Shown here: positions 1-27,039 of the stretch, piece after piece
Layout of the letters: each line of letters opens with the position of its first letter
Numbering within the stretch: the first letter of the stretch is position 1
DNA from: Candidatus Omnitrophota bacterium
GTDB lineage: Bacteria; Omnitrophota; Gorgyraeia; Gygaellales; JAHJCI01
DNA: 64,000 nt
Assembly (NCBI GenBank): GCA_042570305.1
Contig: JBHPGP010000001.1
Span: forward strand, 828-64,827
Reading direction: 5' to 3'
Made by a program: the position numbers and the translations under genes
The notes under the pieces: generated by a model
Seen by the model: the letters and a program-made list of their open reading frames with translations, nothing else
Databases searched by the model: none
What the model was told of the DNA's origin: nothing

Positions 1-3000
1 GTATGGCATTTGAACCTGTTTCACCCTGAAATAATCCCCATACTTGCTTTATTTCTCCTGTATCCTTATCTATCTCCTGTATTGGCGCAAAGAACTTTGT
101 CTGAGCTGTGTCTAGCTCTGGATGTCCCGCAAGTAAGGTCTTTTGCCCCTCAATATATGCTTCCTTTGCTTCAGAATCCATTTTGTCTTCTAATGTGAAA
201 TATTCTAATGGAGCGCTAAACAGGCGGGGCTGAGAAAGCTGTTCATAGGTGGCTTTCTCAAGTTCTCCTTGCTGATTAAGAACATATGTTGTCTCTCCCA
301 TTATCCGATTAATTGCGTAATCGCCTACCAACTTCTTTGTTCCCAGCCAACCCGCACCTGCTGAGACGCTGCCTAGGGTAGCTCCGGTCCCCCAAGAGAG
401 AGTGCCCTTCAATAAGGTTTGCCCACGAGAAAGCGTTCCAGTAGGACTTGCTGCTGCTGGCTTTAGTGCAAAACGGCTGTTTATCCCTTTCATCGCTGCA
501 CCCAAAGTAAGAAAACCGCCGGCGCTAAAAGTTAACAGCCCTAGATTAGCTAGAACATTTCCTCCGATTGTGCCTTTTAAGCCATCATGGTGTGCTCCAA
601 AATAGTACATAGTTGCACCTGCGCCCATTACGCCTACACCCATTGCCCCCGCCTTTACCGGATTATCCTGAACAAACCTGCTTACTGCTTTTGCATACCT
701 GTTATTTGTAGCGAACTTAGTAACCGGTCTTAAGGCACTAAATGCTGTATTGAAGAGTACTGCTGAAGATGCAACAGAATCAAAATTATAGGCCAATCTA
801 TTTGCGGATTTGCCCAAAGCACTAAAATCTCCACCGCTGCCTAAAAGAGGCATACCTAAAGCAAAGGCTGTATTAATCGCAAGGAACTTTGGTGTAGTTG
901 CTATGGCCTTACCAACAAAGTTCATTGCCTTACCAACACCAGTGAGATTTCCACCAACCAGCGGAAAACCGCCATGGCCAAACTCACCTACCATAACAAA
1001 CCCATTAGAAGATTGTTTTATATGATGCATCCTGGCATGAGATTGTATTCCCTTGCCAACATCTCTAAAACCTGTTCCTGAACCAATTAAACTACCGAAC
1101 AAATAAGCCCATTCTGCAGGGCTGGCAGGCATTATCCCAGCTGCATCAGGGCTACCAGTGGTTATGTCGCGAAGAAGATTACCTAAAGCAAGAAGTTCTT
1201 GTAATGTCTCGGGGTGAAAAGCATTCAATACTAACCCGGGAGAAGCCAGATAAAATTTGGTTAATCCAAAGGCGTAGGAAGAGGCAACTCCAACCCCAAG
1301 TATACTATTGAATGATTGCAAGACTACGCCTGTTTCTATCTGGTCTAATTTCTTCACCCTTTCTCGCAAAGGAGTAATCCCTAAAACCTGCCTGCCGCCG
1401 GCCGTTGCGATATTATTCGCTAGCGACCTGACAAAAGAAGGCTGGTAGTAATCAAATTCATCTACTTTTCCATCTGCATTAATATCTAAATCCTTGTTAT
1501 CTATTATTCCATCCTGGTTAAAATCTTCAGTAGCCACTGTTGGAGGCTTTATTTTTAATGCGTCATATGCAGCATATGGCGTACTCAGGCTATAGTAAGT
1601 AATAAAGGATGTTTTTAATGGATGCTGCATTAACTTTTGCCCTAATCCTGGGAATGCTTTACCTACTAACCAACCTCCAGCATACCCCATTTTGCTCATA
1701 ATCACGTTGGGCGCCTTATAACCAAACCTAAACAAATTCCACGTAAATTTAGGAGGCGCGACCTTAATCGGCGGCGGGGCTGAGTTGGGTTTAAATGGTG
1801 AACGCATAGCTGTAACGCCGCCAAAAACTGCTCCGATTCCAAAGTGGATTAAATCTCCCTGCCAGCCAAGGTTATACTGTTCGGGCAGGCCGAATGAGGT
1901 TAAGTAGGTGCGGGTTGAGCCTGGATTTTCAGGATCCGGTACATCGAGTAGAGGAGTAAGGCGACCTCCGGCAAGACCAACCGTACCATAAAGAAGCGAG
2001 GAACTTCCCACTTTCGCCAGTGTGCCGGAAGTCCCAGCCAACGCAGAACTAAATCTGGGAATAAACTTGAATCCCGCACCTATCGTAACGGCTAAAGCAG
2101 CTCCTGTCCCAAAATCAACCCCTGCCTGTTTCCAGCTGTAGGGCATACCCCGGAATTGGCTATCCAGGTATCCCCTGCCAACGCCTATAGTACCGCCCGT
2201 ACCTGCCATAGCTGCCCATTTAGCGCCTTGATAAACTACTGGATGAGCGCTGGCAAAAGATGCGAGCCTGCTTGAGTGGACAACTGAATTAAGACCCCTG
2301 CTCACAAGGCCTAGCCCCTTAAAGCCGACTGTCATCAATATGCCCGTCATCATAGACTGCATGGCAATTTGTCCGGACTGCTGAGGGGACAGACCTTGCC
2401 CATTACTCATTGCATTGGCCACAAGCAGGTTCACTCCTGTCAAGCCAACGCCGGTTAACAGTGCCCTTGATGACAGGCTGGCCGTCGTTGTCAATATGCT
2501 TGCAGTCCGGGAGGCTGTAGCAGCGGTTGTTGTACCCATTAACCTTAATGCGCCTGTTGCTCCAGCTCCCACAGCACACGTTCCTACAACCAGCGCTACT
2601 GTAGCAAGGTCTCCATAAGTAAAGTGGTTGGTGCTACTTCCTACCGTTGCTGTTCGCGGGTACTTCATTTCCCAGCTCAATCTTGAGAAAACCGGAATGC
2701 CCTCTCCCCATCCAGGCCTTGATTTCATCATATTATCGCGCAGTTTTTGATACGAGGATTTGGGATATGTATAGCCTCCAACAATAGTTCTGGTCTGCTT
2801 TTCGGAAAGCTTGCCTATCTCTATTCCTTTAATCTCCTCTCCGATAAGGAGGAATCCGCTGACTTCAGTAATCAGCGCGATCTTGGGAATAAATTTCTCT
2901 TCTCCCTTTTCCTGATAATAGATGCCGTCTTCGGATATTCCGGTAACATAGACAAAGTGGTCGGAATTAAGGTGTGCAATAAAAGGAATTAATTTATTGG

Positions 3001-3883
3001 TTGGTTGGTTGATGAGCTGACTGGGCAGCAGCTTAACCGGGTAGAGCTTAAGCCCTAATGACTTGGCTACCTCGCTTAATGCAAAAAAGGATGTTTTAAG
3101 CTTGCCTTTTAATTCCTTAATATTGCCGGTAAGCAGGTCAACCAGTATAACCCGCAGGGCTAATTCTTCTAACGTTATATCTATCTTATTGTACTGCAGA
3201 ATGTTATGTAAAGCATAAACGCCACAGTAATTGTCTATCTGGGTTGATGGTTCCCTTAACCATTTGTAAATCTTCTTAATAAGTGGGTAACTAATATAGA
3301 GGCTGTCTGGGCGTAACATGCTTTTACTTAAATAGAACGGCACTCCTCTTGGCCAATAATCAACAAACTTCCGGCCATGTTTGACAATATCCACTATTGT
3401 CTTTGCCGGTGCCTGGCTTTCGGCAATCTCCTTCTCTGACCTGCCATATGATATGGAAAACTCCAGCAGCCTGATTATGCTATTTAAGGATAATTCCATG
3501 CCCTTCATTACCTGAAGGGATATCTGGTCATAATAAGGGTTTAACCACCACGACGGAATATTCTCATTTGGATCCTGCGTTAAGGCATTAGAGTGATTCG
3601 GCGTCGGGGTATCTACTACCAGATTGGAGGCGATCTCAACCCGCTGCAAGGGTTTCTCAGCCAAGAAATCAAGAGAGCGGCGCACGTTCTCGGCAACAAA
3701 ATTAGCCAGATACCCTGTTTGCCCTGAACCAAGATAATAGCGCGGAGCCCAAAGCACGCTGGGATCATAACCCATTGCCCAGGCTGCCTGTTCAGGGACA
3801 AAAACAATCACCACCAACAAGGCAACTGCCCTTATCCAGCGCTTGAATTTTGACTGAGTTTCTTGTTTAATCTCTTCTTTCAT
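1..3883 (-). CDS. Giant membrane-anchored protein, 3' end outside the window (at least 1294 aa). Has an N-terminal signal-anchor, a papain-like/C39-like cysteine peptidase domain, a long Gly/Ala/Thr-rich hydrophobic region and tandem EF-hand-like Ca-binding loops.
   Basis: Absent from the supplied ORF track because it has no stop codon inside the window. Hand translation from the ATG (complement of 3881-3883) gives MKEEIKQETQSKFKRWIRAVALLVVIVFVPEQAAWAMGYDPS... I checked it codon by codon for 3883->2701 and 1561->1441 without a stop. No minus-strand ORF is listed below 3616, consistent with one open frame to base 1. Motifs: NYCGVYALHN (Cys codon 3224-3226) and NSDHFVYV (His codon 2957-2959). 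Confidence 0.8.
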   Translation of the reverse strand, partial: MKEEIKQETQSKFKRWIRAVALLVVIVFVPEQAAWAMGYDPSVLWAPRYYLGSGQTGYLANFVAENVRRSLDFLAEKPLQRVEIASNLVVDTPTPNHSNALTQDPNENIPSWWLNPYYDQISLQVMKGMELSLNSIIRLLEFSISYGRSEKEIAESQAPAKTIVDIVKHGRKFVDYWPRGVPFYLSKSMLRPDSLYISYPLIKKIYKWLREPSTQIDNYCGVYALHNILQYNKIDITLEELALRVILVDLLTGNIKELKGKLKTSFFALSEVAKSLGLKLYPVKLLPSQLINQPTNKLIPFIAHLNSDHFVYVTGISEDGIYYQEKGEEKFIPKIALITEVSGFLLIGEEIKGIEIGKLSEKQTRTIVGGYTYPKSSYQKLRDNMMKSRPGWGEGIPVFSRLSWEMKYPRTATVGSSTNHFTYGDLATVALVVGTCAVGAGATGALRLMGTTTAATASRTASILTTTASLSSRALLTGVGLTGVNLLVANAMSNGQGLSPQQSGQIAMQSMMTGILMTVGFKGLGLVSRGLNSVVHSSRLASFASAHPVVYQGAKWAAMAGTGGTIGVGRGYLDSQFRGMPYSWKQAGVDFGTGAALAVTIGAGFKFIPRFSSALAGTSGTLAKVGSSSLLYGTVGLAGGRLTPLLDVPDPENPGSTRTYLTSFGLPEQYNLGWQGDLIHFGIGAVFGGVTAMRSPFKPNSAPPPIKVAPPKFTWNLFRFGYKAPNVIMSKMGYAGGWLVGKAFPGLGQKLMQHPLKTSFITYYSLSTPYAAYDALKIKPPTVATEDFNQDGIIDNKDLDINADGKVDEFDYYQPSFVRSLANNIATAGGRQVLGITPLRERVKKLDQIETGVVLQSFNSILGVGVASSYAFGLTKFYLASPGLVLNAFHPETLQELLALGNLLRDITTGSPDAAGIMPASPAEWAYLFGSLIGSGTGFRDVGKGIQSHARMHHIKQSSNGFVMVGEFGHGGFPLVGGNLTGVGKAMNFVGKAIATTPKFLAINTAFALGMPLLGSGGDFSALGKSANRLAYNFDSVASSAVLFNTAFSALRPVTKFATNNRYAKAVSRFVQDNPVKAGAMGVGVMGAGATMYYFGAHHDGLKGTIGGNVLANLGLLTFSAGGFLTLGAAMKGINSRFALKPAAASPTGTLSRGQTLLKGTLSWGTGATLGSVSAGAGWLGTKKLVGDYAINRIMGETTYVLNQQGELEKATYEQLSQPRLFSAPLEYFTLEDKMDSEAKEAYIEGQKTLLAGHPELDTAQTKFFAPIQEIDKDTGEIKQVWGLFQGETGSNAI

Positions 3884-3915
3884 ATCTTATTGCTGCACAA
3901 AAAGTTACATACTCT

Positions 3916-4048
3916 AAAATCTCAGCGGGTTAGTGCTCCCCCGCGGCCTTCGGTAGCCTGGCTTTTTCCGATTCTGCATCGGGAACCCATGGCTTTGCGC
4001 GCCCCTAACTCCTTAGGTGTCAAGGGTTTGCCTTTTCGATGCCGTCAC
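3916..4048 (-). promoter_or_regulatory. Candidate c-di-GMP-I (GEMM-I)-like riboswitch in the 5' leader of the giant-protein gene
   Basis: The minus-strand RNA reads ...AAAAGGCAAACC-CUUGACACCUAAGGAGUUAGGGG-CGCGCAAAGCCAUGGG...GCCGCGGGGGAGCAC... GGCAAACC (4025-4032) and GCGCAAAGCC (3991-4000) flank a hairpin. From memory, these resemble the GEMM-I core (GGCAAACC...GGGACGCAAAGCC). The element ends in a GCGGG/CCCGC hairpin followed by GAUUUU. It lies in the 210-nt TadC-to-giant-ORF spacer. Confidence 0.5.
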
Positions 4049-4093
4049 AAAACAACACACTTCTTAAAAAACAATATCTATCTACAGAACGCG

Positions 4094-4957
4094 TTAAAAC
4101 TTAAGGAATCCGCCACGCGTAAACTGAATTAATATTGGCCCGGCCACAACTATCATAACCACCGGCAAAATAAATAACAGCAAAGGCGCTAAAAGTTTTA
4201 TCGGCGCCTTTAATGCCATTTCCTCGCCTTTTTGAAACCGGCGCATTCTTATCTCTTCTGACTGCATCTTTAATGTTTCTCCAATTGGAGTTCCCATACG
4301 GTCTGCCTGCAGCAGGGTGCGCACAAAAGAAATCATCTCCGGGCTGTTTATCCGGTTGGCCAAATTCTTTAATGAGTCGCGGCGGGAGCCTCCCATCTTT
4401 ATCTCGTGAATCAAAACCTTAAGCTCATCAACCAGGACGCAGGAACGGAACCCCTCAACCACGCGATTGACTGCCATCATAAAATCTAACCCGGCTCCTA
4501 CGCAAATATTTAAGAGGTCGATAATGTGCGGCAAGTCCTTTAAAACCGCAGCCTGCCTTTTCTTTATTTTACTGTTAATCCACAGGTCCGGGACAAAGTA
4601 GCCAACGCACAAAGCCAAAATGAGCATAAGCGGTTCTGGACGGAATATAATGAATACCACAAAAGGCACAGATGCCATCGCCGAAAATTTAATCGCCAGG
4701 AATTGAGCAGCCTTCATCGGCCTGCCTGCGGAGACCAACTTTCTCCTCAAGTTCTCCATAGGAATATGGACTCTTTCCAGTAAGCGTTCAGTAATCTGCG
4801 TAGGAAAACTCAAGATGCTCCTGAATCCAGATGCAGAATGCGCATCTTTAATCTCTTCCGGCAGGTGCAATCCGCCAGCCAGGCTGCGGGAGGAGAACTG
4901 ATAAGCCAGCAACCCGATACTGGAAAAGAGAAATGCGGAAATAAGCAATAGTTCCAT
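4094..4957 (-). CDS. tadC: Tad pilus inner-membrane platform protein TadC (T2SS F-family domain)
   Basis: 287 aa with TM segments and a T2SSF-type core (GLDFMMAVNRV...MGGSRRDSLKNLANR...LLQADRMGTPIGETL...). Directly follows tadB. Confidence 0.85.
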   Translation of the reverse strand: MELLLISAFLFSSIGLLAYQFSSRSLAGGLHLPEEIKDAHSASGFRSILSFPTQITERLLERVHIPMENLRRKLVSAGRPMKAAQFLAIKFSAMASVPFVVFIIFRPEPLMLILALCVGYFVPDLWINSKIKKRQAAVLKDLPHIIDLLNICVGAGLDFMMAVNRVVEGFRSCVLVDELKVLIHEIKMGGSRRDSLKNLANRINSPEMISFVRTLLQADRMGTPIGETLKMQSEEIRMRRFQKGEEMALKAPIKLLAPLLLFILPVVMIVVAGPILIQFTRGGFLKF

Positions 4958-11740: not shown

Positions 11741-11887
11741 TTATTGCGGCTCAGCATTAATCTGGTCCTGAATCAGTTTAAAATTCGCCTGCACTGCTCG
11801 CTGTACATAGAGATGCATGGCCAGGAATGCCGCTGCCACAATAGTAATTAGTAATGCGTATTCAATTGTGCTCTGCGCTCTTCTCAT
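11741..11887 (-). CDS. Short Flp-like pilin (48 aa), below the ORF-track cutoff
   Basis: Hand translation gives MRRAQSTIEYALLITIVAAAFLAMHLYVQRAVQANFKLIQDQINAEPQ*. Its ATG overlaps the stop of the upstream gene (ATGA at 11884-11887). Confidence 0.65.
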   Translation of the reverse strand: MRRAQSTIEYALLITIVAAAFLAMHLYVQRAVQANFKLIQDQINAEPQ

Positions 11888-12090
11888 CTTAGCATATCGT
11901 CGACTGCTTGGTCAAAGGCATCATTGCAAATCTCTTTTATGCCCGGACGCTCACCGGGTCCGGGATTCGGATTGGTAAAGAATTTGCTTTTAGTAAAAAA
12001 CAAAACGATTGCCACTACGGAAATCGTTAATATACAATACTCGAATATTGACTGACCATGAATACTTTTATTAATCTTTTTAAAAGTCAT
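11884..12090 (-). CDS. Flp-like pilin, first gene of the pilin array
   Basis: MTFKKINKSIHGQSIFEYCILTISVVAIVLFF... has a G-QSxxEY motif. GGGAG lies upstream of the ATG. Confidence 0.6.
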   Translation of the reverse strand: MTFKKINKSIHGQSIFEYCILTISVVAIVLFFTKSKFFTNPNPGPGERPGIKEICNDAFDQAVDDMLR

Positions 12091-12227
12091 TATTAACTCC
12101 CAAATAAAAAACCGGCGCTACCGTTTCGGCAGCCCGGTTACAACATAAATTCCACAATAATTTTTCCCGTGGCTTTGCTATCCCCTTGTCTTGCTTAAGG
12201 GAACAACCCTTGTCGTTCGGCAGTTAA
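12091..12227 (-). promoter_or_regulatory. Structured ~135-nt leader of the pilin operon ending in a terminator-like hairpin plus U-run (possible riboswitch or attenuator)
   Basis: The minus-strand RNA contains an AAGGG-UUGUU-CCCUU hairpin (12197-12211). It also contains GGGGAUAGCAAAGCCACGGG (GCAAAGCC at 12171-12178), similar to the 3991-4000 core. A CCGGGCUGCCGAAACGGUAGCGCCGG hairpin (12112-12137) is followed by UUUUUU (12106-12111), about 15 nt before the GGGAG SD and ATG. Confidence 0.5.
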
Positions 12228-12256
12228 AGTATAACATAGGTGCAAGATGCTGTCAA
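12228..12256 (-). promoter_or_regulatory. Sigma70-type promoter of the pilin operon
   Basis: On the minus strand, TTGACA (12251-12256), a 17-nt spacer, then TATACT (12228-12233). Confidence 0.7.
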
Positions 12257-13627: not shown

Positions 13628-16600
13628 TTAATCTTGTTCATTATAACAAAATGCAAGCATATTTGCAAAATTCTTATATGCTCCCAAATGAAAATCCCTA
13701 AGCTGACGATGCCAGGAGTAGGTGGTAAAAATGTAGCTGCCCCTTCCGTAACGCGCAATAAGATAGCCTCCTTTAAGCGGAATATCCTGAGAAAAACAGG
13801 AAATTAATTCAGTATATTTGCTTGAATATTCAAAAGCAAAAGAAAGGCCCCGATCCTGCAGCCAGCCATCAAAGTCCAGCGCAGTAATTTTATTTGGGAA
13901 ATTGAACAGGGAGTGCCCGGGCTTAAGAATTACAATCTTGGCATCCTCATCAGTTACAGGATTAAACTCCATCTTAATACGATAGGGAGCATAGCTAAAC
14001 TCGGGTTGCTTCCTTAGATAAGCAGGGGCAAACACTATAAGATTGCCTCCATTTTTCACAAATTTAAGCAGGTGTTTATTGTTCGCCTTAACAAGTGCCT
14101 CATCAGAGGAATAAACCCCTTGCCCCAAAACTATGGTATCGAATTGCGATAAATCAGCTCTATTCAGGAAATCCGCATCCAGGCTCTCGAAATCACAGCC
14201 TAAAGTTTTCAGCGCAATGAACAAAAGATTGTTGTTTTCTTCAACCAAGCCTATGCGCAAAGGAGTTGCTATTTTTACGCCCGGGAGGCCTGAAGGCACG
14301 GGGGCCTGCATATCTTCAACAGGCAAAGACAGGCCTGTCTGGATTCCGTCAAGGAAAGAATATTCCTGCTGCACAGGAACACTGGATTTGGCCAATTGAT
14401 AGCTGACTTCTGCCTGCTTATACATAGTGCTCAGCCATTGCCAATCGCCCTGGCTGCGGTGTTGCCTTAATGCATCCAGGGCAATCTGGCTTATCGTTTT
14501 ATCTTCTGGCTGAATACGCTGCCTGACATCTATTGTAACCGTATCGCTATCTGTATCGTTCTTTAAACTGAATTCCTGACCGGTACGCCTCTGGTAAAAT
14601 TTAAGGGGCTGCCAGGGAAGAAGCCCCTGCTCTTGCATCTCTGGATAGGCTGCAGGGTCACCCGCCAAATCAAAAGCCTGCTCAGCTAAAATAACCAGAG
14701 CTTGATGCTGACAATGATCATCAGCGTTGAATTTATTGTGTTTAGTAATAATGATGTGCGGCTTTATAAGGCGGTAAAAATATACTAATCTTTCCAGGGT
14801 ATCCTGCTGGCCCCATACTGTAAATGCCTCTTGGGGATTACGGCAATAGCCAAAATCATGCTTACCTAAATAATAAACCCTGTTAACTCCCAGAATAGAT
14901 GCAGCCCTTTCCATCTCATCGGTACGCAAGAAGCCCAGTTCTTTATCAAGCAGCTGGTTAAGCTCGTTCTCTCCTGCTTCGCCCCGCGTAGCCAAAAGGA
15001 TATAGCTGGAACAGCCTAGCTTTCTTTTAAGATATGCCAGAGCCTGTCCATCCTCATCATCTGGATGAGCAGCCAGACAGAGTACGCGGATTGAGCCTTT
15101 ATTCCCTTGAGCCCTGATACTGTTTTTAAGGTCGCTAAACTTGGCAACTATATTCTTGAATACGCTGCCTTGCCCCCTCTGACTATCCAGCCATTCTTCA
15201 AATGCCTTTTTAAATAATTGATAGGCGCATAGCGCCTGGCTTTGATTAGAAAACATGCTTAACCATTCTATGGGTAAATCTTCAAAGGGCTTAATCTCCA
15301 GCCTGCCGTCAGAATGGATAATCACAGGGGAGAGGTCATTAGGATTAGGCGATACATAGCCTGTATTGTGTAGCTTTAAGAATAGCGCTATTATTTCTTC
15401 CTGGGATGCAACCAAAGAATCAATAATGGACTGCTTGGCCTGGCCGTCTAACCGGCTACAGGCTTCCTGCTGCCTGGCATAAGGAGAAGTTCTATTGCTT
15501 GCGCTGAACCTGGTATGCGCTTTTAATTTACCGCCGCTACCTAATCTCTCGAACTCTTTGCCGATTAAATATGCGCTGCGCGTATAGAGGTTAAGCCCAT
15601 ATTGATTGACTAAACCTCCTTCATGCTGTCCGGTAATAAACATCGGTATCCTGGAAGATTCCTGAAACTTATCTATAAACCTGGGGTCGCGCGCGTGTAT
15701 GCCAGACAGGGTATAGTTACTAAGCACCTCTCTCCAGCTGTTGAATTCTTCCTCCGTGCGGCAATAGACGTCACTAATCAGTTTTTGGGTAATCTTCTCC
15801 TCCACTGTCATATCCCTTAATAAATGACTTAAAGGCTTTCCAAAGATCCTTTCCTTTTCTGCTAATATCCTGGCAAGGGAAGCATCCAGATCTTCCTGCT
15901 TAATTCTGCCCTCCTCGATTGCTTTTTTTACATGCTTAATTATAGATGAAATGGTCTCTTTCGCATGCTGGGGAGATTTTACATAGAATATAGCAATGTC
16001 GGCTCCTGCCTGAAACGCCCTGACTACAATCTCTCCTATATACGGCTCTTTGATTTCCTGCTGCAGGGCATATTCTCTAACTGCCTGCATAACCAATAAC
16101 TCGTCAACAATGATTATTCCTTTAAACCCTAATTCCTCCCGCAGGATCCCGGTTTGGATCTGGCGGGATAGAGAAGCTAATTCCTTCTTTAAGTCAGGAT
16201 AAATTGCATGGCCAATCATTATCCAGAAATTAACCGGTTCTTTAATCAACCTCATAAAGGGCAGAAAATCTTTTTTCAGGAGCTCTTTTTTAGAAATCTT
16301 TATTTCAGGCAGCCAGACATGACTATCTGAACGACTGTGCCCTAAGCCAGGAAAGTGCTTTAATACCGGGGTTATCCCGCCTTTAGCCATGCCTTTGATT
16401 ACTGCATAGGCCAGCTCAGCTACTATGTCGGGGTCCTGGGAATAAATGCGTTTCTTTCTTGCCAGGGGAATACTGGTATCCTCAATATCATCAGCCACAT
16501 CCACCACAGGAGCAAAATTTATATTGTATCCTTGCCTTTGCATAGACCGGCTGATACTCGCCCATTCGTGCTCAAGCTGCTTAAGGTAATCTTGCGCATT

Positions 16601-17485
16601 GGAAGGCAAATACCAGAATAATTCATTATCCTCCAGCAGGGTCTCCAAATCAGCCATTTCTTTTATATCCATAAGGAGATATTCTCTTAAGGCATTGATC
16701 TTCTGCTCCTTCACCTCAACGATATCCTCTTTATAATTCGGCTCTTGAGAAAATACGTAGGAGTAAGGCGATTCCTGTTCAGGGCCGCCAAAGAAATAAT
16801 ACAATATCTCTGCCTGGTTAGTCCATCCATTCTGGCCTCCATATTCCAGTTCTTCCAAGGCCAGGTTTACAAAGTCTGTGCTTGTTGCATAATCAGGATT
16901 ATTATCTAACGGGTGGGGTAGATAAATCGTCCTGGGTTTACATTCCTGTAGAATATCCTTTATATCAAAGAGCATGTTCTCCTTTGTATACCCTTGCTTT
17001 GCCCTGTTATATGTTGCGCGATAAGCAGAGGCATAAGTTCTCGTCATATCTGAATTATAATGCACTTCGTATCTCTCCTGCCAAAGATGCGACAATCCGT
17101 TATCAGGGTAACTTAAAAATATAATATCTTCCTTATCCAGGCCTAAGCCATTGGTTGCGGATAAAGCCTGTTTCTGAAACTCCTCTGCCCGGGCAATATA
17201 ATCATTGGGGGATAAAGCTTCTGGGTTTTGATTGAAGCCGGCGCGGGAGAGGCCAAACCTGCCTTCGCCATTAGTCAAAAACACAACCTTTATTTTTTTA
17301 TTTGCTTTAACTGCCTTGAGAATCGTTCCCCCGCAACATAGGGTTGCAACACCCGGGTGCGGTGAAAAGATGATTATGTCAGTGGAGGCTTGCTTGGCAT
17401 GGGCGGGAAAAAAGAACAGGAAAAGATAAGGCAGTGCGAGGATTAAAACCCTGGCCTTTAATTTACTGAGGATCAAATAACTCAC
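13628..17485 (-). CDS. Secreted multidomain carbohydrate-active enzyme: degenerate PIG-L-like domain, GH3 (NagZ-like) domain, intact PIG-L/LmbE deacetylase domain, and a GATase1/ThuA-like C-terminal domain
   Basis: The track ORF (to 17683) overlaps cpaF by 175 nt. An in-frame GTG at 17483-17485 gives VSYLILSKLKARVLILALPYLFLFFFPAHA, which looks like a signal peptide. Motifs seen are SPHPGVATLCCGG (degenerate), KHFPGLGHSRSDSH (GH3), AAHPDDEDG...DDHCQHQA (PIG-L) and FDTIVLGQGVY...NGGNLIVF. Confidence 0.7.
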   Translation of the reverse strand: MSYLILSKLKARVLILALPYLFLFFFPAHAKQASTDIIIFSPHPGVATLCCGGTILKAVKANKKIKVVFLTNGEGRFGLSRAGFNQNPEALSPNDYIARAEEFQKQALSATNGLGLDKEDIIFLSYPDNGLSHLWQERYEVHYNSDMTRTYASAYRATYNRAKQGYTKENMLFDIKDILQECKPRTIYLPHPLDNNPDYATSTDFVNLALEELEYGGQNGWTNQAEILYYFFGGPEQESPYSYVFSQEPNYKEDIVEVKEQKINALREYLLMDIKEMADLETLLEDNELFWYLPSNAQDYLKQLEHEWASISRSMQRQGYNINFAPVVDVADDIEDTSIPLARKKRIYSQDPDIVAELAYAVIKGMAKGGITPVLKHFPGLGHSRSDSHVWLPEIKISKKELLKKDFLPFMRLIKEPVNFWIMIGHAIYPDLKKELASLSRQIQTGILREELGFKGIIIVDELLVMQAVREYALQQEIKEPYIGEIVVRAFQAGADIAIFYVKSPQHAKETISSIIKHVKKAIEEGRIKQEDLDASLARILAEKERIFGKPLSHLLRDMTVEEKITQKLISDVYCRTEEEFNSWREVLSNYTLSGIHARDPRFIDKFQESSRIPMFITGQHEGGLVNQYGLNLYTRSAYLIGKEFERLGSGGKLKAHTRFSASNRTSPYARQQEACSRLDGQAKQSIIDSLVASQEEIIALFLKLHNTGYVSPNPNDLSPVIIHSDGRLEIKPFEDLPIEWLSMFSNQSQALCAYQLFKKAFEEWLDSQRGQGSVFKNIVAKFSDLKNSIRAQGNKGSIRVLCLAAHPDDEDGQALAYLKRKLGCSSYILLATRGEAGENELNQLLDKELGFLRTDEMERAASILGVNRVYYLGKHDFGYCRNPQEAFTVWGQQDTLERLVYFYRLIKPHIIITKHNKFNADDHCQHQALVILAEQAFDLAGDPAAYPEMQEQGLLPWQPLKFYQRRTGQEFSLKNDTDSDTVTIDVRQRIQPEDKTISQIALDALRQHRSQGDWQWLSTMYKQAEVSYQLAKSSVPVQQEYSFLDGIQTGLSLPVEDMQAPVPSGLPGVKIATPLRIGLVEENNNLLFIALKTLGCDFESLDADFLNRADLSQFDTIVLGQGVYSSDEALVKANNKHLLKFVKNGGNLIVFAPAYLRKQPEFSYAPYRIKMEFNPVTDEDAKIVILKPGHSLFNFPNKITALDFDGWLQDRGLSFAFEYSSKYTELISCFSQDIPLKGGYLIARYGRGSYIFTTYSWHRQLRDFHLGAYKNFANMLAFCYNEQD

Positions 17486-17507
17486 CTGAAATTTGCCAGG
17501 CGTTGTT

Positions 17508-19679
17508 TTAGGATTTTTTCTCAAATATCTCTTTTGACAGGGGGATGCCGCGGCTTTGTATCTCGTCAAAAAAGGTAGGCAACGTTCCGGTTGGGCGGAA
17601 TTCACCTTTGATATTGCCCTGCTCGTCAACAGAAACCTGATGAAAGGAAAAGATATCCTGTAATCCGATGTGTAATTCATCAAGCATCCCGGTAACCTCG
17701 GTTATTTGCAAAATCTTTCTTGAGCCATCCGAGAGTCGCGCTGTATGCACAATAATATCGATGGCTGAAGCAATCATCTCACGAATAGCGCGTATTGGTA
17801 TCTCTATGCCGCTCATCAGAATTAAGGAATCCAGGCGCGCTAAGACATCGTGGGTGGAATTGGCATGGATGGTGGTCATTGAGCCGTCGTGGCCCGTATT
17901 CATTGCCTGAAGCATATCCAGGCTTTCCGGCCCCCGGCATTCTCCAATAATAATCCGGTCTGGCCGCATACGCAAGGAATTGCGGAATAAATCGCGTACC
18001 GTTATAGCACCCTTGCCTTCAATGTTGGGAGGCCGCGACTCAAGCCTTACCCAATGCTGATGATGAAGTTTTAATTCTGCAGCGTCCTCAATAGTAAGTA
18101 CGCGCTCGCCCTGTGAAACATATTCAGAAAGTACGTTTAAAACCGTAGTTTTACCCGAACCGGTTCCCCCTGAAACGATTATATTCTTGCGCCCTAAAAC
18201 ACAAGCCCTCAAGAATTCAGACATTACATTATCAAGTGCGTTTAATCTTGTCAAATCCGCGATTTTAAGCCTCTCTCGTCCAAACTTACGGATAGTCAGA
18301 GTGGGGCCGGTAAGGGAAAGCGGAGGGATAATCGCATTAACCCGCGAACCATCGCTGAGTCGCGCATCCACCATCGGCACTGATTCATCTATTCTCCTTC
18401 CCAACGGCGCAATAATTCTCTCAATAATCTGGCGCACCTGCTCATTAGAAACGAACCGCTTAGAAGCCAACTCCAGCCTGCCGAACCTCTCCACGTAAAT
18501 CTGACTTTTGTTGTTAACCATAATATCGGTGATCTCCGCATCGTCAATCAGATCCTCCAATGGGCCAAAGCCCAGGGCTTCGTCGGTTATTTCTTTTACC
18601 AGGCGCTCGCGCTCCTCTCGGGTAGAAATTAATGTTCCTGCCTCCTGACTCAGTGCGTTATTTACTGACTTTATTGTCCTCTGCCGTAAATTTTCAATCT
18701 TTGTCTCATCTCCCGCAAAGCGGTCTAGCCTGCGCAAATCCAGCTCTTGAATAATCCGGCGGTGAACCCGTTTTTTCAATTCATCCATTCTTTCCTCGCG
18801 GCTTATATGCTTGGCAACCGCGGTGACTTCGCCCAGATGAACGGACTCCATAGGCGTGGGCAGGTTTTCTTCCGGCTTCTTAGGATGTGCGGAAAAGATT
18901 GTCTCCAGCTCCTGGTGGGAAATAAAAAAATCAGGGTGCTCCAGCAAATCTGCCGCTAATTTAATCAGTGTAGTGCTCACCCGGGAACGGGCGCTATCTA
19001 ATACTACGGGAACACGACGGTTCAAGGCAGAGCCAACAATCCTGCCCTCAGAGGGAATACGGGCGATTATGTCGCAAGGCAGAGCCATACTTACTTCCCG
19101 CCAGGTCACTGCTCCTTGAGATTCCGCGCGATTCAATATTGCCTTCATCATTCTCAGGGGAAGTAAATAAACTGACTGCAATATTTCGATTGCTTCTTTG
19201 GCCTGATAAACTGAAAGCACATCCGGGTTAACCACTATCAGGATTAGATTTGTCTGTTCAAACAGGGTAATCTGGAGTTTGCCAAAACTGCGGCCGGAAT
19301 CAACAACAATAAATTCATAATCCTTGCTGAGGTCTTTTAAAACCTGTGAGATGAATTGATAATCTATTAATGGCGCTTCCCTAGGGTTTAAAATAACAGA
19401 AAGCAGGTCAATCTTGCCTTTTGGATAATGGCAAATACAATTACGCAACTCGGAAGCAGCGTATTTGCCCTTCTTCCACTCGGAAGCCAAATTTACCAGC
19501 GCCTTATCTGATTTTAAATTAAGCATCCGCGCCATATCTCCGGGCAGATGCAGATCGATATCCAAAAGCAAGACCTTTTTATCTTTTAGTTTTTTTGCCA
19601 GGCAAACAGCGAGGTTAGTGGCAATAAGCGTTCTGCCAACACCGCCCTTTGTGCTGAAAACAGATATAGTCTGAGCCAT
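17508..19679 (-). CDS. cpaF: Fusion of a TadZ/CpaE-like ParA/MinD-type domain with the TadA/CpaF secretion ATPase
   Basis: 723 aa. The N-terminal ~255 aa read ISVFSTKGGVGRTLIATNLA...LLLDIDL...IVVDSG, a deviant Walker A with R in place of K as in CpaE/TadZ. The C-terminal part reads VSGGTGSGKTTVLN...IIIGECRGPESLDMLQAMNTGHDGSMTTIHANS, the T2SS-E/CpaF core. Confidence 0.85.
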   Translation of the reverse strand: MAQTISVFSTKGGVGRTLIATNLAVCLAKKLKDKKVLLLDIDLHLPGDMARMLNLKSDKALVNLASEWKKGKYAASELRNCICHYPKGKIDLLSVILNPREAPLIDYQFISQVLKDLSKDYEFIVVDSGRSFGKLQITLFEQTNLILIVVNPDVLSVYQAKEAIEILQSVYLLPLRMMKAILNRAESQGAVTWREVSMALPCDIIARIPSEGRIVGSALNRRVPVVLDSARSRVSTTLIKLAADLLEHPDFFISHQELETIFSAHPKKPEENLPTPMESVHLGEVTAVAKHISREERMDELKKRVHRRIIQELDLRRLDRFAGDETKIENLRQRTIKSVNNALSQEAGTLISTREERERLVKEITDEALGFGPLEDLIDDAEITDIMVNNKSQIYVERFGRLELASKRFVSNEQVRQIIERIIAPLGRRIDESVPMVDARLSDGSRVNAIIPPLSLTGPTLTIRKFGRERLKIADLTRLNALDNVMSEFLRACVLGRKNIIVSGGTGSGKTTVLNVLSEYVSQGERVLTIEDAAELKLHHQHWVRLESRPPNIEGKGAITVRDLFRNSLRMRPDRIIIGECRGPESLDMLQAMNTGHDGSMTTIHANSTHDVLARLDSLILMSGIEIPIRAIREMIASAIDIIVHTARLSDGSRKILQITEVTGMLDELHIGLQDIFSFHQVSVDEQGNIKGEFRPTGTLPTFFDEIQSRGIPLSKEIFEKKS

Positions 19680-23404: not shown

Positions 23405-24607
23405 ATGCCTTTATATGCCAGTGTGGGGGTAAGCTTTAATAAAGAGTACAAATCTGCGATTGCCGAGGCCGCCTCTCAGGCAAAGACTGACCTTAAGCAA
23501 AATAATATTTCCCTGGCTATAGTGCTCACCTCTTTTGACTTTGCCTTTCCTTATGTATTAAAGGCGATTGGCAGCCTTATAGGAGAAAACGTCCCTTTAA
23601 TCGGGACAACCAGTAATGCCATCCTGACAAAGGACGGAGCCCACCGCCATGCAGTAGCGATAATGCTGATCAGCACAGAAGACGCTTACTGTAATACCGC
23701 CGCCATCAAGGATATCTTAATAGACCTCTACGCAGGAGGCGACCGGCTGGGAAAACAATTATTATTCGGCATGAAAGAATTCCAACGGCGCTTCTGCCTC
23801 TTTTTCTCCGATGGGATGATCATGGACAGCCTCCCCCTCCTAAAAGGACTGCAGCAGAGATTAGGCATCAGCTTCCCGATAATAGGGGCCACCGCCGCCT
23901 CCGATGATATCCAGGCAAAGAAAACCCATCAGTACTTTAACCAGAGGGTATTAAATAGCTCGATTGCCGGACTGCTCTGGGCCGGTAAAATAAATTTTGG
24001 CGTGGGCATAAAACACGGCTGGAAGCCTCTCGGCAAGCCCCGCCGGGTCAACCTTGCGGATAAAACCGTCATTAAGGAAATTGAAAACAGGCCTGCTGTA
24101 TCGTTATATCAGGATTATTTTGCCAAGGACACAGCGGAATTAAGAAAGGAATTAAAACGCATATCCTGCCTGTATCCCGTGGGAATAAATATTTCAGGAG
24201 AAGAAGAATATCTCCTCAGGAACATCCTCTCCATAGAGGAAGACGGCTCGTTAGTCTGCAGGGGCGATGTGCCCGTAGGCAGCAGGGTCAGATTGATGAT
24301 TGCCACTAAAGAATCGTGCCTGGCCGCTACAGAAGAGGCCGCTCAAGACGCAAAACAGGCTTTTGCGATGCGCACATTCCCCAAACAAGAACCGATAAAC
24401 GCGATACTGGTATTTAATTCCGCTTCGAGGCTATACCTGCTGGGCAGGCAAATTACCAAGGAATTGGAAATTATCAAATCGCATTTCCCGGATACGCCGA
24501 TTATGGGCCTTTGCACTTTCGGTGAGCAGGCGCCTTTAAAGGCAACTGATTTCGCAGGCAAAACCTACTGCCATAACCAAACTATCGCTATCATAGCAAT
24601 GGGCTAA
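23405..24607 (+). CDS. FIST-domain sensor protein (FIST_N + FIST_C)
   Basis: 400 aa with typical FIST layout and motifs (...IVLTSFDF...PLIGTTS...; C-terminal GLCTFGEQAP). Confidence 0.7.
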   Translation: MPLYASVGVSFNKEYKSAIAEAASQAKTDLKQNNISLAIVLTSFDFAFPYVLKAIGSLIGENVPLIGTTSNAILTKDGAHRHAVAIMLISTEDAYCNTAAIKDILIDLYAGGDRLGKQLLFGMKEFQRRFCLFFSDGMIMDSLPLLKGLQQRLGISFPIIGATAASDDIQAKKTHQYFNQRVLNSSIAGLLWAGKINFGVGIKHGWKPLGKPRRVNLADKTVIKEIENRPAVSLYQDYFAKDTAELRKELKRISCLYPVGINISGEEEYLLRNILSIEEDGSLVCRGDVPVGSRVRLMIATKESCLAATEEAAQDAKQAFAMRTFPKQEPINAILVFNSASRLYLLGRQITKELEIIKSHFPDTPIMGLCTFGEQAPLKATDFAGKTYCHNQTIAIIAMG

Positions 24608-24609
24608 AG

Positions 24610-26109
24610 ATGAACCCGTACCCGTTCTACATACTTGGCACTGTAAGCATGCTCACGATAGCCGTCTTGAGTTTCATCCTGATACTCAAAACGGAAAGGA
24701 TAAGAAAGCTGACTTCCAGCGTCAAGCGCTTGCAGAATTCGCTCGAACAAATGGACGAACAGGCAAAGTTGATTGTGCGTACGGACCTTGAATTAAATAA
24801 AATCCAGGAGGAACTGGATAAAAAAATCTCCGGTCTTTACACGCTGCAGAAGCTCTCGCGCGCCTTTGCCTCCACGCTGGATGAAAAAGAAATATTAAAC
24901 CAGATCGGACCTGAATATATCGAAGAGCTCGGGATGCAGAAGGCTCTCGGTTTTATCTGGCAAGACAGGGAAAAGCGCTTTCTGCAGGGGCTGACGATCG
25001 GCTATAACCGGCAGGAGCTTGATAATATTATGCTGCAGGTCAATAAAAAACAAGGCCTTTATCTAAAAATAATCGAGCAGGAAAAAACCCTTTCATCGCG
25101 AATCGCTGATGCTGCGCCTATCTCTGCGGAGGAGATAAAAAGCGTATTCCGGGTAAAGGCCTTCTGCATCTCTCCCATCCTGCCCAAAGAGGGCGCTCAT
25201 GGATTTCTCTTTGTGGGCACGGACTCAGAAGAAATTCCCATAACCGAAGGCGACGAAGAGCTGATTACGATTCTCGGACGCTCTATCGGACAGGCATTCG
25301 AGAATGCAAGGCTTTTTGAGGCAAGCTGGCACGCTCAGCAGGAACTGGAAAAAAGGGTCGAGCAGAGAACCCAGGAATTAACCGCGGTGGTCAAGGAATT
25401 AAAAAACGTAAGTAAAAGAAAGAGTGATTTCGTTTCCGCCGTCTCTCATGAATTGAGGACGCCGCTTACCTCTATTAAAGGATACGCCGCCATTCTACTC
25501 AGCAAAAATCTGGGCGAGATACCCGAACCGATAAAGGAAAGGCTGGAAAGAATTAACCGGCACAGCGACGAATTGGTGCATATGGTCAATGACCTCTTGG
25601 ACATCAGCCGGCTGGAATCCGGTCGCATCGTTATGAAAAAGCAGTCCTGTAATCTGAAGGGGCTTGTGGAAGGCATAATGGAACTTCTCTCTGTTCAGAT
25701 AAAGCAAAAAGACATCGCCTTCTCGGCAGAGATTCCGGCCCAGCTTCGCGTCCTGGTGGATAAAAGCCAGATCGAGCGGGTATTTGTCAATCTCATCGGT
25801 AATGCGGTGAAATTTACTCCTGAAAAGGGAAAGATTGCCTTAACCGCGCGGCCGACGGATAATTTCGTGCAGGTAGATATTTCAGATAGCGGCATCGGCA
25901 TACCTAAAGAGGCGCAGGAAACCATATTCGAGGAATTTTATCGCGTGGATAATTCCATTAACGAACAGGTAAAGGGTACGGGCCTGGGCTTAAGCCTGGT
26001 CAAGAACATTATCGAGGCACACCAGGGCTCAATCTGGATAAAAAGCGAAACGGACGCCGGCTCGACCTTCAGCTTCCTTTTGCCTCTCGCAGATACCGGT
26101 AAAGGATAA
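24610..26109 (+). CDS. Membrane-anchored sensor histidine kinase (coiled-coil/GAF-like region, HisKA, HATPase_c)
   Basis: H-box SDFVSAVSHELRTPLTSIKGYA, N-box NLIGNAVKFT, and G-boxes DSGIGIP and GTGLGLS. Confidence 0.9.
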   Translation: MNPYPFYILGTVSMLTIAVLSFILILKTERIRKLTSSVKRLQNSLEQMDEQAKLIVRTDLELNKIQEELDKKISGLYTLQKLSRAFASTLDEKEILNQIGPEYIEELGMQKALGFIWQDREKRFLQGLTIGYNRQELDNIMLQVNKKQGLYLKIIEQEKTLSSRIADAAPISAEEIKSVFRVKAFCISPILPKEGAHGFLFVGTDSEEIPITEGDEELITILGRSIGQAFENARLFEASWHAQQELEKRVEQRTQELTAVVKELKNVSKRKSDFVSAVSHELRTPLTSIKGYAAILLSKNLGEIPEPIKERLERINRHSDELVHMVNDLLDISRLESGRIVMKKQSCNLKGLVEGIMELLSVQIKQKDIAFSAEIPAQLRVLVDKSQIERVFVNLIGNAVKFTPEKGKIALTARPTDNFVQVDISDSGIGIPKEAQETIFEEFYRVDNSINEQVKGTGLGLSLVKNIIEAHQGSIWIKSETDAGSTFSFLLPLADTGKG

Positions 26110-26112
26110 AAT

Positions 26113-27039
26113 ATGCCAGTAAAAATTCTGATTGTTGACGATGACCCGGATATACGGGATGTATTAAAATTGACTCTTGCCGAGGAAAATTACACTATCC
26201 TGGAGGCTGCTGACGGAGAGGAGGCGCTCAAAATCATCACCAGCAAGCCGTTAGACCTGGTGCTTCTGGATTATAAAATGCCGAAAGTCGACGGTAGACA
26301 GGTAGTGCAGCGGGTAAAAGAGGACTTGTTGCTGCGGCACCTGCCGATTATCATGGTCACCGGCAAGCGCGAATTACAGGATAAGGTCGTCGGCCTGGAT
26401 TCCGGTGCCGATGACTATATTACTAAGCCGTTTGAACCCAAAGAACTACTGGCCCGTATCCGTATGACTTTAAGGCGCACTGAAAGGGATTTAGAGGCCA
26501 ATCCGCTGACCAAGCTGCCGGGTAATGTCTCCATACTCAATGAGCTCTCCCTGCGCCTGGAAAGCAATGCCCTGTTTGCGGTTGCCTATATTGATTTGGA
26601 TAAATTTAAAAGCTACAACGACAAATACGGCTTTGAGCTGGGAGATGAAGTCATCCGAGAAACCGCGCGCATATTAATCAAAACAGTGCATGAACAGGGC
26701 AACCCCGGTGACTTTATCGGGCATATCGGAGGAGACGATTTTGTAGTGATCACCACCCCGGAGAAGGTAGACGGCATCTGCAAACAGGTGATTGCAGAGT
26801 TCGGGGCAAGGTCGCCTTCCTTTTACAATGAAAGCGACAGGCAAAAGGGTCATATTATTTCTCAAAACCGCAAGGGTCAGGAGGAAGAGGTTTCCCTGCT
26901 TTCTGTGTCAATAGGCGTGGTTACCAACGCATCCCGCAAGATAACTCATGTTGCCGAGATCGGAGAAATAGGTGCGGAATTAAAGGGTTATGCCAAATCC
27001 CTGGAAGGCAACAGCTACATCAAGGACAAGCGCGCATAA
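26113..27039 (+). CDS. Response regulator with REC + GGDEF-family domain (signature GGDDF)
   Basis: REC region: ILIVDDDPDI...DLVLLDYKMPKVDG...TGK. Output domain: NPLTKLPGN...YIDLDKFKSYNDKYGFELGDEVI...GHIGGDDFVVI. Confidence 0.85.
   Translation: MPVKILIVDDDPDIRDVLKLTLAEENYTILEAADGEEALKIITSKPLDLVLLDYKMPKVDGRQVVQRVKEDLLLRHLPIIMVTGKRELQDKVVGLDSGADDYITKPFEPKELLARIRMTLRRTERDLEANPLTKLPGNVSILNELSLRLESNALFAVAYIDLDKFKSYNDKYGFELGDEVIRETARILIKTVHEQGNPGDFIGHIGGDDFVVITTPEKVDGICKQVIAEFGARSPSFYNESDRQKGHIISQNRKGQEEEVSLLSVSIGVVTNASRKITHVAEIGEIGAELKGYAKSLEGNSYIKDKRA

Follow-up and report, generated by a model that had tools for sequence, protein, structure and literature searches.

An aptamer of the c-di-GMP-I (GEMM-I) riboswitch class is encoded on the minus strand of the 64-kb window (the whole stretch of DNA that was analyzed), at positions 3944-4044, in the spacer that separates a tadC gene from a giant ORF. 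We conclude that the element is a genuine c-di-GMP-I aptamer, one more representative of a class that is already known and very common: its family membership, its architecture, its ligand-contact nucleotides, the covariation of its helices among relatives, and its conserved but patchy position at this junction are all directly evident. We consider it likely that the aptamer binds c-di-GMP and that closure of its P1 helix alters expression of the giant ORF independently of the upstream pilus genes. A second, divergent GEMM-I-like element, termed RS2, is located at the 5′ end of the same pilin/Tad/giant-gene operon.

The minus-strand genes of this locus encode a SurA-like Rotamase_2 PPIase, RcpC/CpaB, a secretin, a TadZ-TadA-type ATPase fusion, a large GH3 + PIG-L protein, approximately eight small Flp/class-III-signal pilin-like proteins, and TadE/G-like proteins, and the series ends with two T2SSF genes (tadB and tadC) followed by the ORF that starts at 3883. 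The tadC gene (4094-4957, minus strand; T2SSF family, Pfam PF00482) has its UAA stop codon at 4096-4094, 49 nt before P1. The 5′ part of the giant ORF (1-3883, minus strand) begins with the ATG at 3883 and runs off the window after more than 1294 aa, and its ortholog in the related locus L001 is open for more than 2421 aa. At its N-terminus the predicted product has a signal anchor, and residues 218-322 form a Peptidase_C39 domain. The large GH3 + PIG-L protein is specified by a 1351-aa ORF in the Tad-like locus (13628-17683, minus strand), which combines a GH3 glycosidase with two PIG-L (GlcNAc deacetylase) domains and is adjoined by a DUF192 gene. This ORF fits the cell-wall-degrading enzymes reported beside giant genes.

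An earlier note on this DNA had placed a REC-GGDEF regulator at the other end of the locus. A protein of this kind is indeed encoded there (26113-27039, plus strand, in an operon spanning 23405-27039), but it carries GGDDF in place of the canonical GG[D/E]EF motif. No other gene in view resembles a cyclase, and it is uncertain whether this protein acts as one, given the GGDDF motif and a Pfam match that covers only the first 92 of the 161 profile positions. The protein also has no RxxD I-site, the second half of its domain holds an insertion, and the genes that precede it encode a FIST-domain protein and a GAF-HisKA-HATPase kinase.

The proposal of a GEMM-I riboswitch at the junction of tadC and the giant ORF, also made in the earlier note, was borne out by the match to the family model, by covariation, and by the presence of aptamers at the same site in orthologous loci. 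The spacer is exactly 210 nt long (4093-3884), as had been reported, and the strings quoted from it, including AAAAGGCAAACC, CGCGCAAAGCCAUGGG, and CCGAU/AUCGG, were all found there on the minus strand. The Rfam model RF01051 (c-di-GMP-I/GEMM-I) matched positions 3949-4042 of the minus strand with 41.8 bits, which is above its gathering score of 35. The corresponding E value is 4.1e-7 when the local region is searched and 8.7e-5 when both strands of the 64 kb and 4227 Rfam families are taken into account. A scan of the 64-kb window with all Rfam families returned seven tRNAs and this RF01051 match, and nothing else. As a control, RF01786 (c-di-GMP-II) yielded no gathering-level match in the window and none at E <= 10 in positions 3800-4200. 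With a covariance model of our own (R1, described below), the aptamer including P1 scored 95.7 bits.

Alignment to the RF01051 consensus, together with folding, revealed the three helices and the junction that they enclose. The 5′ strand of P1 (4037-4044, minus strand, as for all of the following) consists of CGGC (4044-4041) and CG (4038-4037), whose partners are GCCG (3947-3944) and CG (3952-3951), respectively. In the junction, the equivalent of G20 is 4032 (segment 4030-4032), and the equivalents of G21-C22 (4031-4030) are paired with those of G45-C46 (3998-3997), which are flanked by the equivalents of C44 (3999) and A47 (3996); the C92 equivalent is 3953. The P1b hairpin (4002-4026) has the form CCCUUGACACC-UAA-GGAGUUAGGGG, with a UAA loop and no GNRA tetraloop. 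The P2 stem-loop (3955-3994) has the form AGCC-A-UGG...CCGAU[GCAGA]AUCGG...AG-CCAGGCU and holds no CUAAG...UAUG tetraloop receptor. The equivalent of G83 is 3962 in P2, and the C44-G83 tertiary pair is present at the sequence level only. Both P1b and P2 were recovered by unconstrained folding of the spacer.

Some details of the structure as it had been described before required revision. The 10-pair hairpin CCCUUGACACC-UAA-GGAGUUAGGGG (4026-4002) does contain its 10 pairs, and in addition an A.A mismatch. Neither the base of P2 (GCCAUGG...CCAGGC) nor P1 (GGC/GCC plus CG/CG) had been recognized. The reading of CCUAAG as half of a tetraloop receptor fails, because in RF01051 the receptor belongs in P2 and this string sits in P1b. 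There it comprises the loop and its closing pairs and is thus in the wrong helix, L001 has AAUCGUAGAU at this place, and the resemblance was set aside as coincidental.

The ligand contacts of this class have been established for Vc2, whose numbering is used here. The two guanines of the ligand are paired with G20 and with C92, the latter by a Watson-Crick pair in Vc2, and the identity of position 20 is informative: G is found in aptamers for c-di-GMP, and A is found in aptamers that bind cGAMP or are bispecific (PMC6140456; PMC5888326). The G21-C46, C22-G45, and C44-G83 pairs and the tetraloop/receptor contact have likewise been described, and a G83C mutation blocks holo folding in Vc2 (PMC11705072). 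Because the equivalents of G20, A47, C92, and C44/G83 are all kept in the spacer aptamer, c-di-GMP rather than cGAMP is the expected ligand.

Two further features of the spacer are recorded here. The approximately 45-50 nt between the tadC stop codon and the aptamer (4045-4093, minus strand; L001:5797-5840) appear by eye to be about as conserved as the aptamer itself, and UUGUUUU repeats within them can pair, with G.U pairs, to the aptamer segment AAAAGGCAA, which includes G20. In addition, the P1 5′ strand and adjoining junction GCAUCGAAAAGGC (4031-4043, minus strand) nearly repeat the 3′ arm of the P2 tip, AAUCGGAAAAAGCC (3961-3974, minus strand). GCAUCG can thus pair with CGAUGC of the P2 tip. 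L001 retains this potential pairing with one wobble, whereas L004 and L005 do not have it.

By searching with the N-terminal 420 residues of the giant ORF, we found 13 related loci (designated by L numbers); among genomes, a Candidatus Omnitrophota MAG matched most closely. In all of the ten closest loci (the window and L001-L009; 47-83% protein identity), tadC is followed by the giant ORF on one strand. This synteny was seen in the 12 related loci with the upstream gene in view, and the upstream context of L012 differs. At the same junction, three of these loci gave RF01051 matches above threshold: L001 with 52.7 bits, and L004 and L005 with 45.4 bits each. No aptamer is present at the junction in the other six of the ten closest loci: tadC and the giant ORF abut, a few nucleotides apart, in L002 and L007, and the spacers of approximately 70 nt in L003, L006, L008, and L009 gave no match to a GEMM model even at E <= 1. 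Overall, Rfam searches at E <= 1 yielded no GEMM match in nine related loci, which indicates that the canonical aptamer is truly absent from them at that sensitivity. Because it is missing from six of the ten closest loci, the aptamer is dispensable.

These comparisons also bear on how the aptamer is transcribed. Terminator and promoter scans of the window found no promoter-like site between tadC and the aptamer. Only approximately 12 nt separate the tadC stop codon from the aptamer in L005, and another 16 nt separate its end from a TTG start codon, which leaves no room there for an aptamer-specific promoter. This short gap and the abutting genes of L002 and L007 argue that tadC and the giant ORF are co-transcribed. 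The spacer aptamer is a patchily distributed intercistronic insert in an operon rather than part of a primary 5′ UTR. The use of TTG as the giant-ORF start, 16 nt past the aptamer, was seen in both L004 (2247) and L005 (3001) and is fixed by the conserved N-terminus MEEEI[KR]Q. No giant-ORF start has a clear Shine-Dalgarno sequence; the ORF that follows an aptamer in L010 has AAAGGAGGTG.

To assess covariation, the R1 model was built from four of these aptamers and used to align eight credible elements. Across 20 pairs in the eight elements, standard pairs occupy 97.5% of the cells, as compared with 22-46% when the partners are slid, and the covariation score was reached by none of 500 shuffles; note that these values come from an alignment of only eight sequences that was fitted to the model, which favors structure. 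Both partners are altered in eight of the 20 pairs. Few elements were available for comparison, namely three distinct canonical lineages and three variants. Compensatory changes are mostly found in the outer P1 pairs and in P1b. The four outer P1 pairs all change on both sides among the relatives (GGC/GCC versus CCG/CGG, with a flanking pair that is C-G, U-A, A-U, or G.U), and the P1b changes are seen against L001, L004, and L010.

Loci without the aptamer at this junction have features of their own. The tadC-to-giant-ORF spacers that lack it (L003, L006, L008, L009, L010 at 2931-3006, and L011) often contain a small hairpin followed by U7-U9, and this U-run is complementary to an A-run before the start codon (...AAAAAAAGAUGG). 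The hairpin and U-run could be a constitutive attenuator or a remnant of a lost riboswitch terminator. In L010, the C39 protein is encoded by a separate 469-aa gene directly after tadC. Downstream of this gene, at L010:4423-4640, there is a remnant of approximately 57 nt of the tadC 3′ end (...AGPILLQFTRGEFVKF*), followed by a canonical GEMM-I aptamer with a GUAA tetraloop that scores 60.9 bits with RF03167, yet has A at position 47. After it come a 9-bp terminator that uses the aptamer 3′ strand, a strong Shine-Dalgarno sequence, and a new ORF, for which BLASTP against the giant ORF of the window returned nothing significant. The arrangement looks like a rearrangement that took the riboswitch along.

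The R1 model produced three significant matches that Rfam does not call, namely RS2 in the window, L012:570-662, and L013:3837-3948. RS2 (12118-12225, minus strand) scored 32.1 bits (E 2.7e-7) with R1, whereas Rfam models gave it at most 22.3 bits, for a model whose gathering score is 59. Three weaker R1 matches at 37-39 kb (E 0.04 to 1) were rejected as noise, the core motifs being missing from their alignments. The three significant elements share the pattern GCCGAACGA-AAGG-UU[G/A]U-CCC...GGG-AUA-GCAAAGCCACGG...GGCUGCCGAAACGG, and all of them keep G20, A47, and C92 (12208, 12176, and 12129, respectively, in RS2). The AAA/GAC internal loop is replaced by a paired UGU/AUA, with a G.U changed to A-U in L013; the equivalents of C44 and G83 are both A, and there is no GNRA loop. 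Judging from these nucleotides, both long-range contacts of Vc2 (tetraloop/receptor and C44-G83) are missing from the three variants. In L012 and L013, which are more distant relatives, the variant is positioned directly upstream of the C39 ORF, which is the site of the canonical aptamer in the window, and we argue from this placement that the two forms are functionally interchangeable.

RS2 occupies the position expected of a leader at the head of an operon. A sigma-70-type promoter (12228-12256, minus strand; TTGACA-17-TATACT with TG before the -10 element) agrees with the consensus at 11 of 12 positions and is the best promoter match in 8.8 kb, and transcription is predicted to start at the first bases of RS2. 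The aptamer runs into an intrinsic terminator (12098-12139, minus strand), AACCGGGCUGCCG-AAA-CGGUAGC-G-CCGGUU followed by UUUUAUUU, which was identified by folding and whose inner stem was also found in the terminator scan. It is a 13-bp hairpin with a U-run, and its 5′ arm is the aptamer strand that comprises the 3′ side of P2, C92, and the 3′ side of P1. Downstream is the first of the approximately eight Flp/class-III-signal pilin-like genes (11884-12090, minus strand; ATG at 12090), which encodes the motif G-Q-S-I-F-E-Y; its paralogs have weak Class_IIIsignal and Flp_Fap matches. Among the other variants, L013, whose sequence is labeled as a Deltaproteobacteria MAG, has a TTGACA-17-TATATT promoter in front of the element, and in both L012 and L013 terminators overlap the aptamer 3′ strand.

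We evaluated possible expression platforms by folding each leader free and with the aptamer pairs enforced. The structures of lowest energy for L010, RS2, L012, and L013 each include an intrinsic terminator with a U-run, the 5′ arm of which is the P2-3′/C92/P1-3′ strand of the aptamer, and enforcing the aptamer costs 4.8, 14.5, 9.2, and 9.9 kcal/mol, respectively (for RS2, -51.9 kcal/mol with the terminator and -37.4 with the aptamer enforced). Because the aptamer 3′ strand serves as the 5′ arm of the terminator, ligand binding is predicted to prevent termination in these four leaders, which is the classical ligand-ON design. In L005, an alternative P1 and a small hairpin (GCCU-CGCUC-AGGC), the latter drawing on the 3′ strand of P1, are located 2 nt before the start codon, an arrangement that hints at ON control as well.

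The spacer aptamer of the window is already near its minimum-energy fold when its pairs are enforced (-53.7 versus -54.7 kcal/mol), as is that of L001 (-56.7 versus -56.7), and comparison of the free and enforced folds revealed no competing structure in either element. The 65-nt segment before the ATG has a consensus fold of only -7.75 kcal/mol. Sequestration of the Shine-Dalgarno region was rejected as a mechanism, the predicted accessibility of the start site being the same in both aptamer states for the window, L001, and L005. Immediately past the aptamer is the hairpin GCGGG-GGAGCACUAA-CCCGC (3944-3925), followed by UGAGA and UUUU (3919-3916), which together span 3916-3944 on the minus strand; G3944 of the hairpin also belongs to the outermost pair of P1. 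The earlier note had this hairpin followed by GAUUUU, which needs correction in that the U-run is 5 nt away and has only four U residues. We rejected it as a classical or conserved terminator: the scan finds none, the U-run does not adjoin the stem, and L001 has no more than a 3-bp core in common with it. The hairpin may nevertheless be part of the expression platform, and the spacer aptamer may act on the giant ORF through weak termination or pausing, through Rho-dependent polarity that follows translational control, or through the stability of the RNA.

The RNA at 3944-4044 folds into the P1/P1b/P2 three-helix junction. We propose that c-di-GMP would be contacted via the equivalents of G20, A47, and C92 (4032, 3996, and 3953), and that ligand binding would close P1 and thereby alter expression of the downstream giant ORF, independently of the upstream pilus genes. 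Transcription through the aptamer would begin upstream, most probably at the 12256-12228 promoter, which would also drive RS2; we infer such an operon-wide transcript from gene spacing and consensus scans only. If this promoter does drive the whole operon, two successive checkpoints, each requiring c-di-GMP, would stand before the giant gene. We tentatively suggest, with somewhat less than even confidence, that two c-di-GMP switches act in series on one transcript, with RS2 governing the pilins, the Tad-like machinery, and everything downstream, and the GEMM-I aptamer separately gating the giant ORF, and that RS2 and the L012 and L013 elements constitute an undescribed GEMM-I subclass. If this is true, the RS2-type subclass, having lost both long-range contacts that are considered necessary for Vc2 to fold, may fold differently or may have altered affinity or specificity for its ligand.

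We judge ON control by the spacer aptamer to be about as likely as not. By analogy, the ON direction, with more giant-gene expression at high c-di-GMP, is suggested because all relatives with a readable platform (L010, RS2, L012, L013, and tentatively L005) are ON designs. We rate it no higher because the platform of the spacer element itself shows no competing structure. The main competitor is an OFF switch, in which a c-di-GMP-binding aptamer would lower giant-gene expression through the GCGGG/CCCGC hairpin and its U-run or through a Rho-dependent or translational mechanism. Switches of both directions exist among GEMM-I RNAs, and Cd1 of C. difficile is an OFF example. An OFF design would be consistent with a hairpin that lies just outside the aptamer and that can form together with it in the free minimum-energy fold. 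Furthermore, AACCC (3931-3927) could pair with GGGUU of the P2 5′ strand, forming 6 pairs in the window and 7 in L001, to create a terminator/antiterminator arrangement. However, P2 is a stable local hairpin in every predicted state, which makes competition between GGGUU and AACCC unlikely, and the antiterminator pairing AUGGGUU (P2):AACCC was set aside on these grounds. The hairpin also shrinks to 3 G-C pairs in L001, the terminator scan calls nothing at this site, and the relatives with readable platforms all point the other way. Thus, we view OFF control as possible and on the whole unlikely.

A different possibility is that the element exerts no cis regulation at all, being either a decaying relic or a "sponge" RNA for c-di-GMP. 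There is reportedly a precedent for a sponge in the abundant GEMM-I transcript (merRNA) of the predator Bdellovibrio, and Omnitrophota are themselves suspected predators. The absence of a competing structure and of a readable platform, along with the absence of the element from most orthologs, would suit this explanation. However, compensatory changes have kept the sequence and its pairs across loci in which the flanking proteins share only 47-61% identity. The core nucleotides for ligand contact are also intact, and the aptamer invariably precedes the same gene, immediately upstream and on its coding strand. We therefore consider a relic or sponge improbable, and we return to cis regulation by c-di-GMP as the preferred reading.

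The ligand itself could also differ, as it would if the element were a cGAMP-sensing (GEMM-Ib) RNA or another clan member with altered specificity, such as c-di-GMP-I-GGC (RF03167). In a small search space, RF03167 gives 44.1 bits and slightly outscores RF01051 at 41.8, and the neighboring GGDEF-like enzyme is noncanonical. The RF03167 score is nevertheless far below the gathering score of 59 for that family, the aptamer has A at position 47 (GCAAAG) rather than the G of RF03167 (GCGAAG), and its position 20 is G and not A. An altered specificity is therefore very improbable, and c-di-GMP remains the predicted ligand. Finally, a chance resemblance with no structured RNA, for which only the modest margin over the gathering score (41.8 versus 35) speaks, can be dismissed given the E value of 8.7e-5 on the full window, the independent above-threshold matches at the orthologous site in three other loci, and the covariation.

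We know of no regulation that determines when or how the giant genes of Omnitrophota are expressed. An aptamer before such a gene is therefore the first regulatory clue for these genes, and together with RS2 it ties the giant-gene/pilus system to c-di-GMP, the bacterial signal for surface attachment. The giant genes reach up to tens of thousands of codons and are thought to serve prey attachment or cell-wall attack. The published accounts of them that were consulted (including bioRxiv 10.1101/2023.11.21.568195) make no mention of a riboswitch, of c-di-GMP, or of any regulator. With the aptamer in hand, giant-gene regulation becomes testable without culturing the organism, and the orthologous loci, only some of which carry the aptamer, provide a natural comparison of regulated and unregulated forms. 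The spacer aptamer alone is ordinary; it is lifted by its giant-gene context, its patchy intercistronic distribution, and the divergent RS2 that heads the same operon. RS2 also shows that curated models miss part of GEMM-I diversity.

Compared with known riboswitches, the spacer aptamer has in common with Vc2 of Vibrio cholerae, the type example of RF01051, the P1/P1b/P2 three-helix junction and all of the nucleotides G20, G21-C46, C22-G45, A47, C92, and C44/G83. Like other RF01051 members, it lies on the coding strand upstream of a gene of the surface/adhesion type. Unlike Vc2, it lacks both the GNRA tetraloop of P1b and the P2 receptor; the contact between the two is confined to "type 1" members and is not obligatory, and the spacer aptamer represents the "type 2" form. 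It also differs from Vc2 in its longer P1b, with 11 stem positions (10 pairs and the A.A mismatch), in its intercistronic location within an operon rather than in a primary 5′ UTR, and in having no recognizable terminator or platform that sequesters a Shine-Dalgarno sequence. RF03167 and GEMM-Ib belong to the same clan (CL00126) and have the same overall fold. RF03167 is numerically the best-scoring clan member for the spacer aptamer in the local search (44.1 bits), yet this score is below its gathering score of 59, and its consensus has GCGAAG, with G at the position of A47, where the spacer aptamer has GCAAAG. GEMM-Ib, which senses 3′,3′-cGAMP, has A at position 20 as its hallmark, whereas the spacer aptamer has G (G4032).

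For RS2, the closest functional parallel is Cdi2_4, a c-di-GMP-II riboswitch upstream of pilA1 in Clostridioides difficile that reportedly turns on a T4 pilus operon by antitermination. The antitermination logic matches that read for RS2 and L010. The two differ in that Cdi2_4 has an unrelated aptamer fold (GEMM-II), controls a T4a pilus rather than a Tad/Flp-like system, and is found in another phylum.

The locus as a whole is of the type that West-Roberts et al. (bioRxiv 10.1101/2023.11.21.568195) described as a conserved secretion/pilus set preceding the giant genes of Omnitrophota, and a 2026 preprint describes a C39 architecture cluster among the giant proteins, with pilus/secretion genes beside 13 of 14 giants. 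Like the window, the locus of West-Roberts et al. contains a Rotamase_2 PPIase, RcpC, a secretin, a T2SSE ATPase, two T2SSF genes, many small class-III-signal genes, and a giant ORF with an N-terminal C39 domain. What the window adds to this set is its RNA elements.
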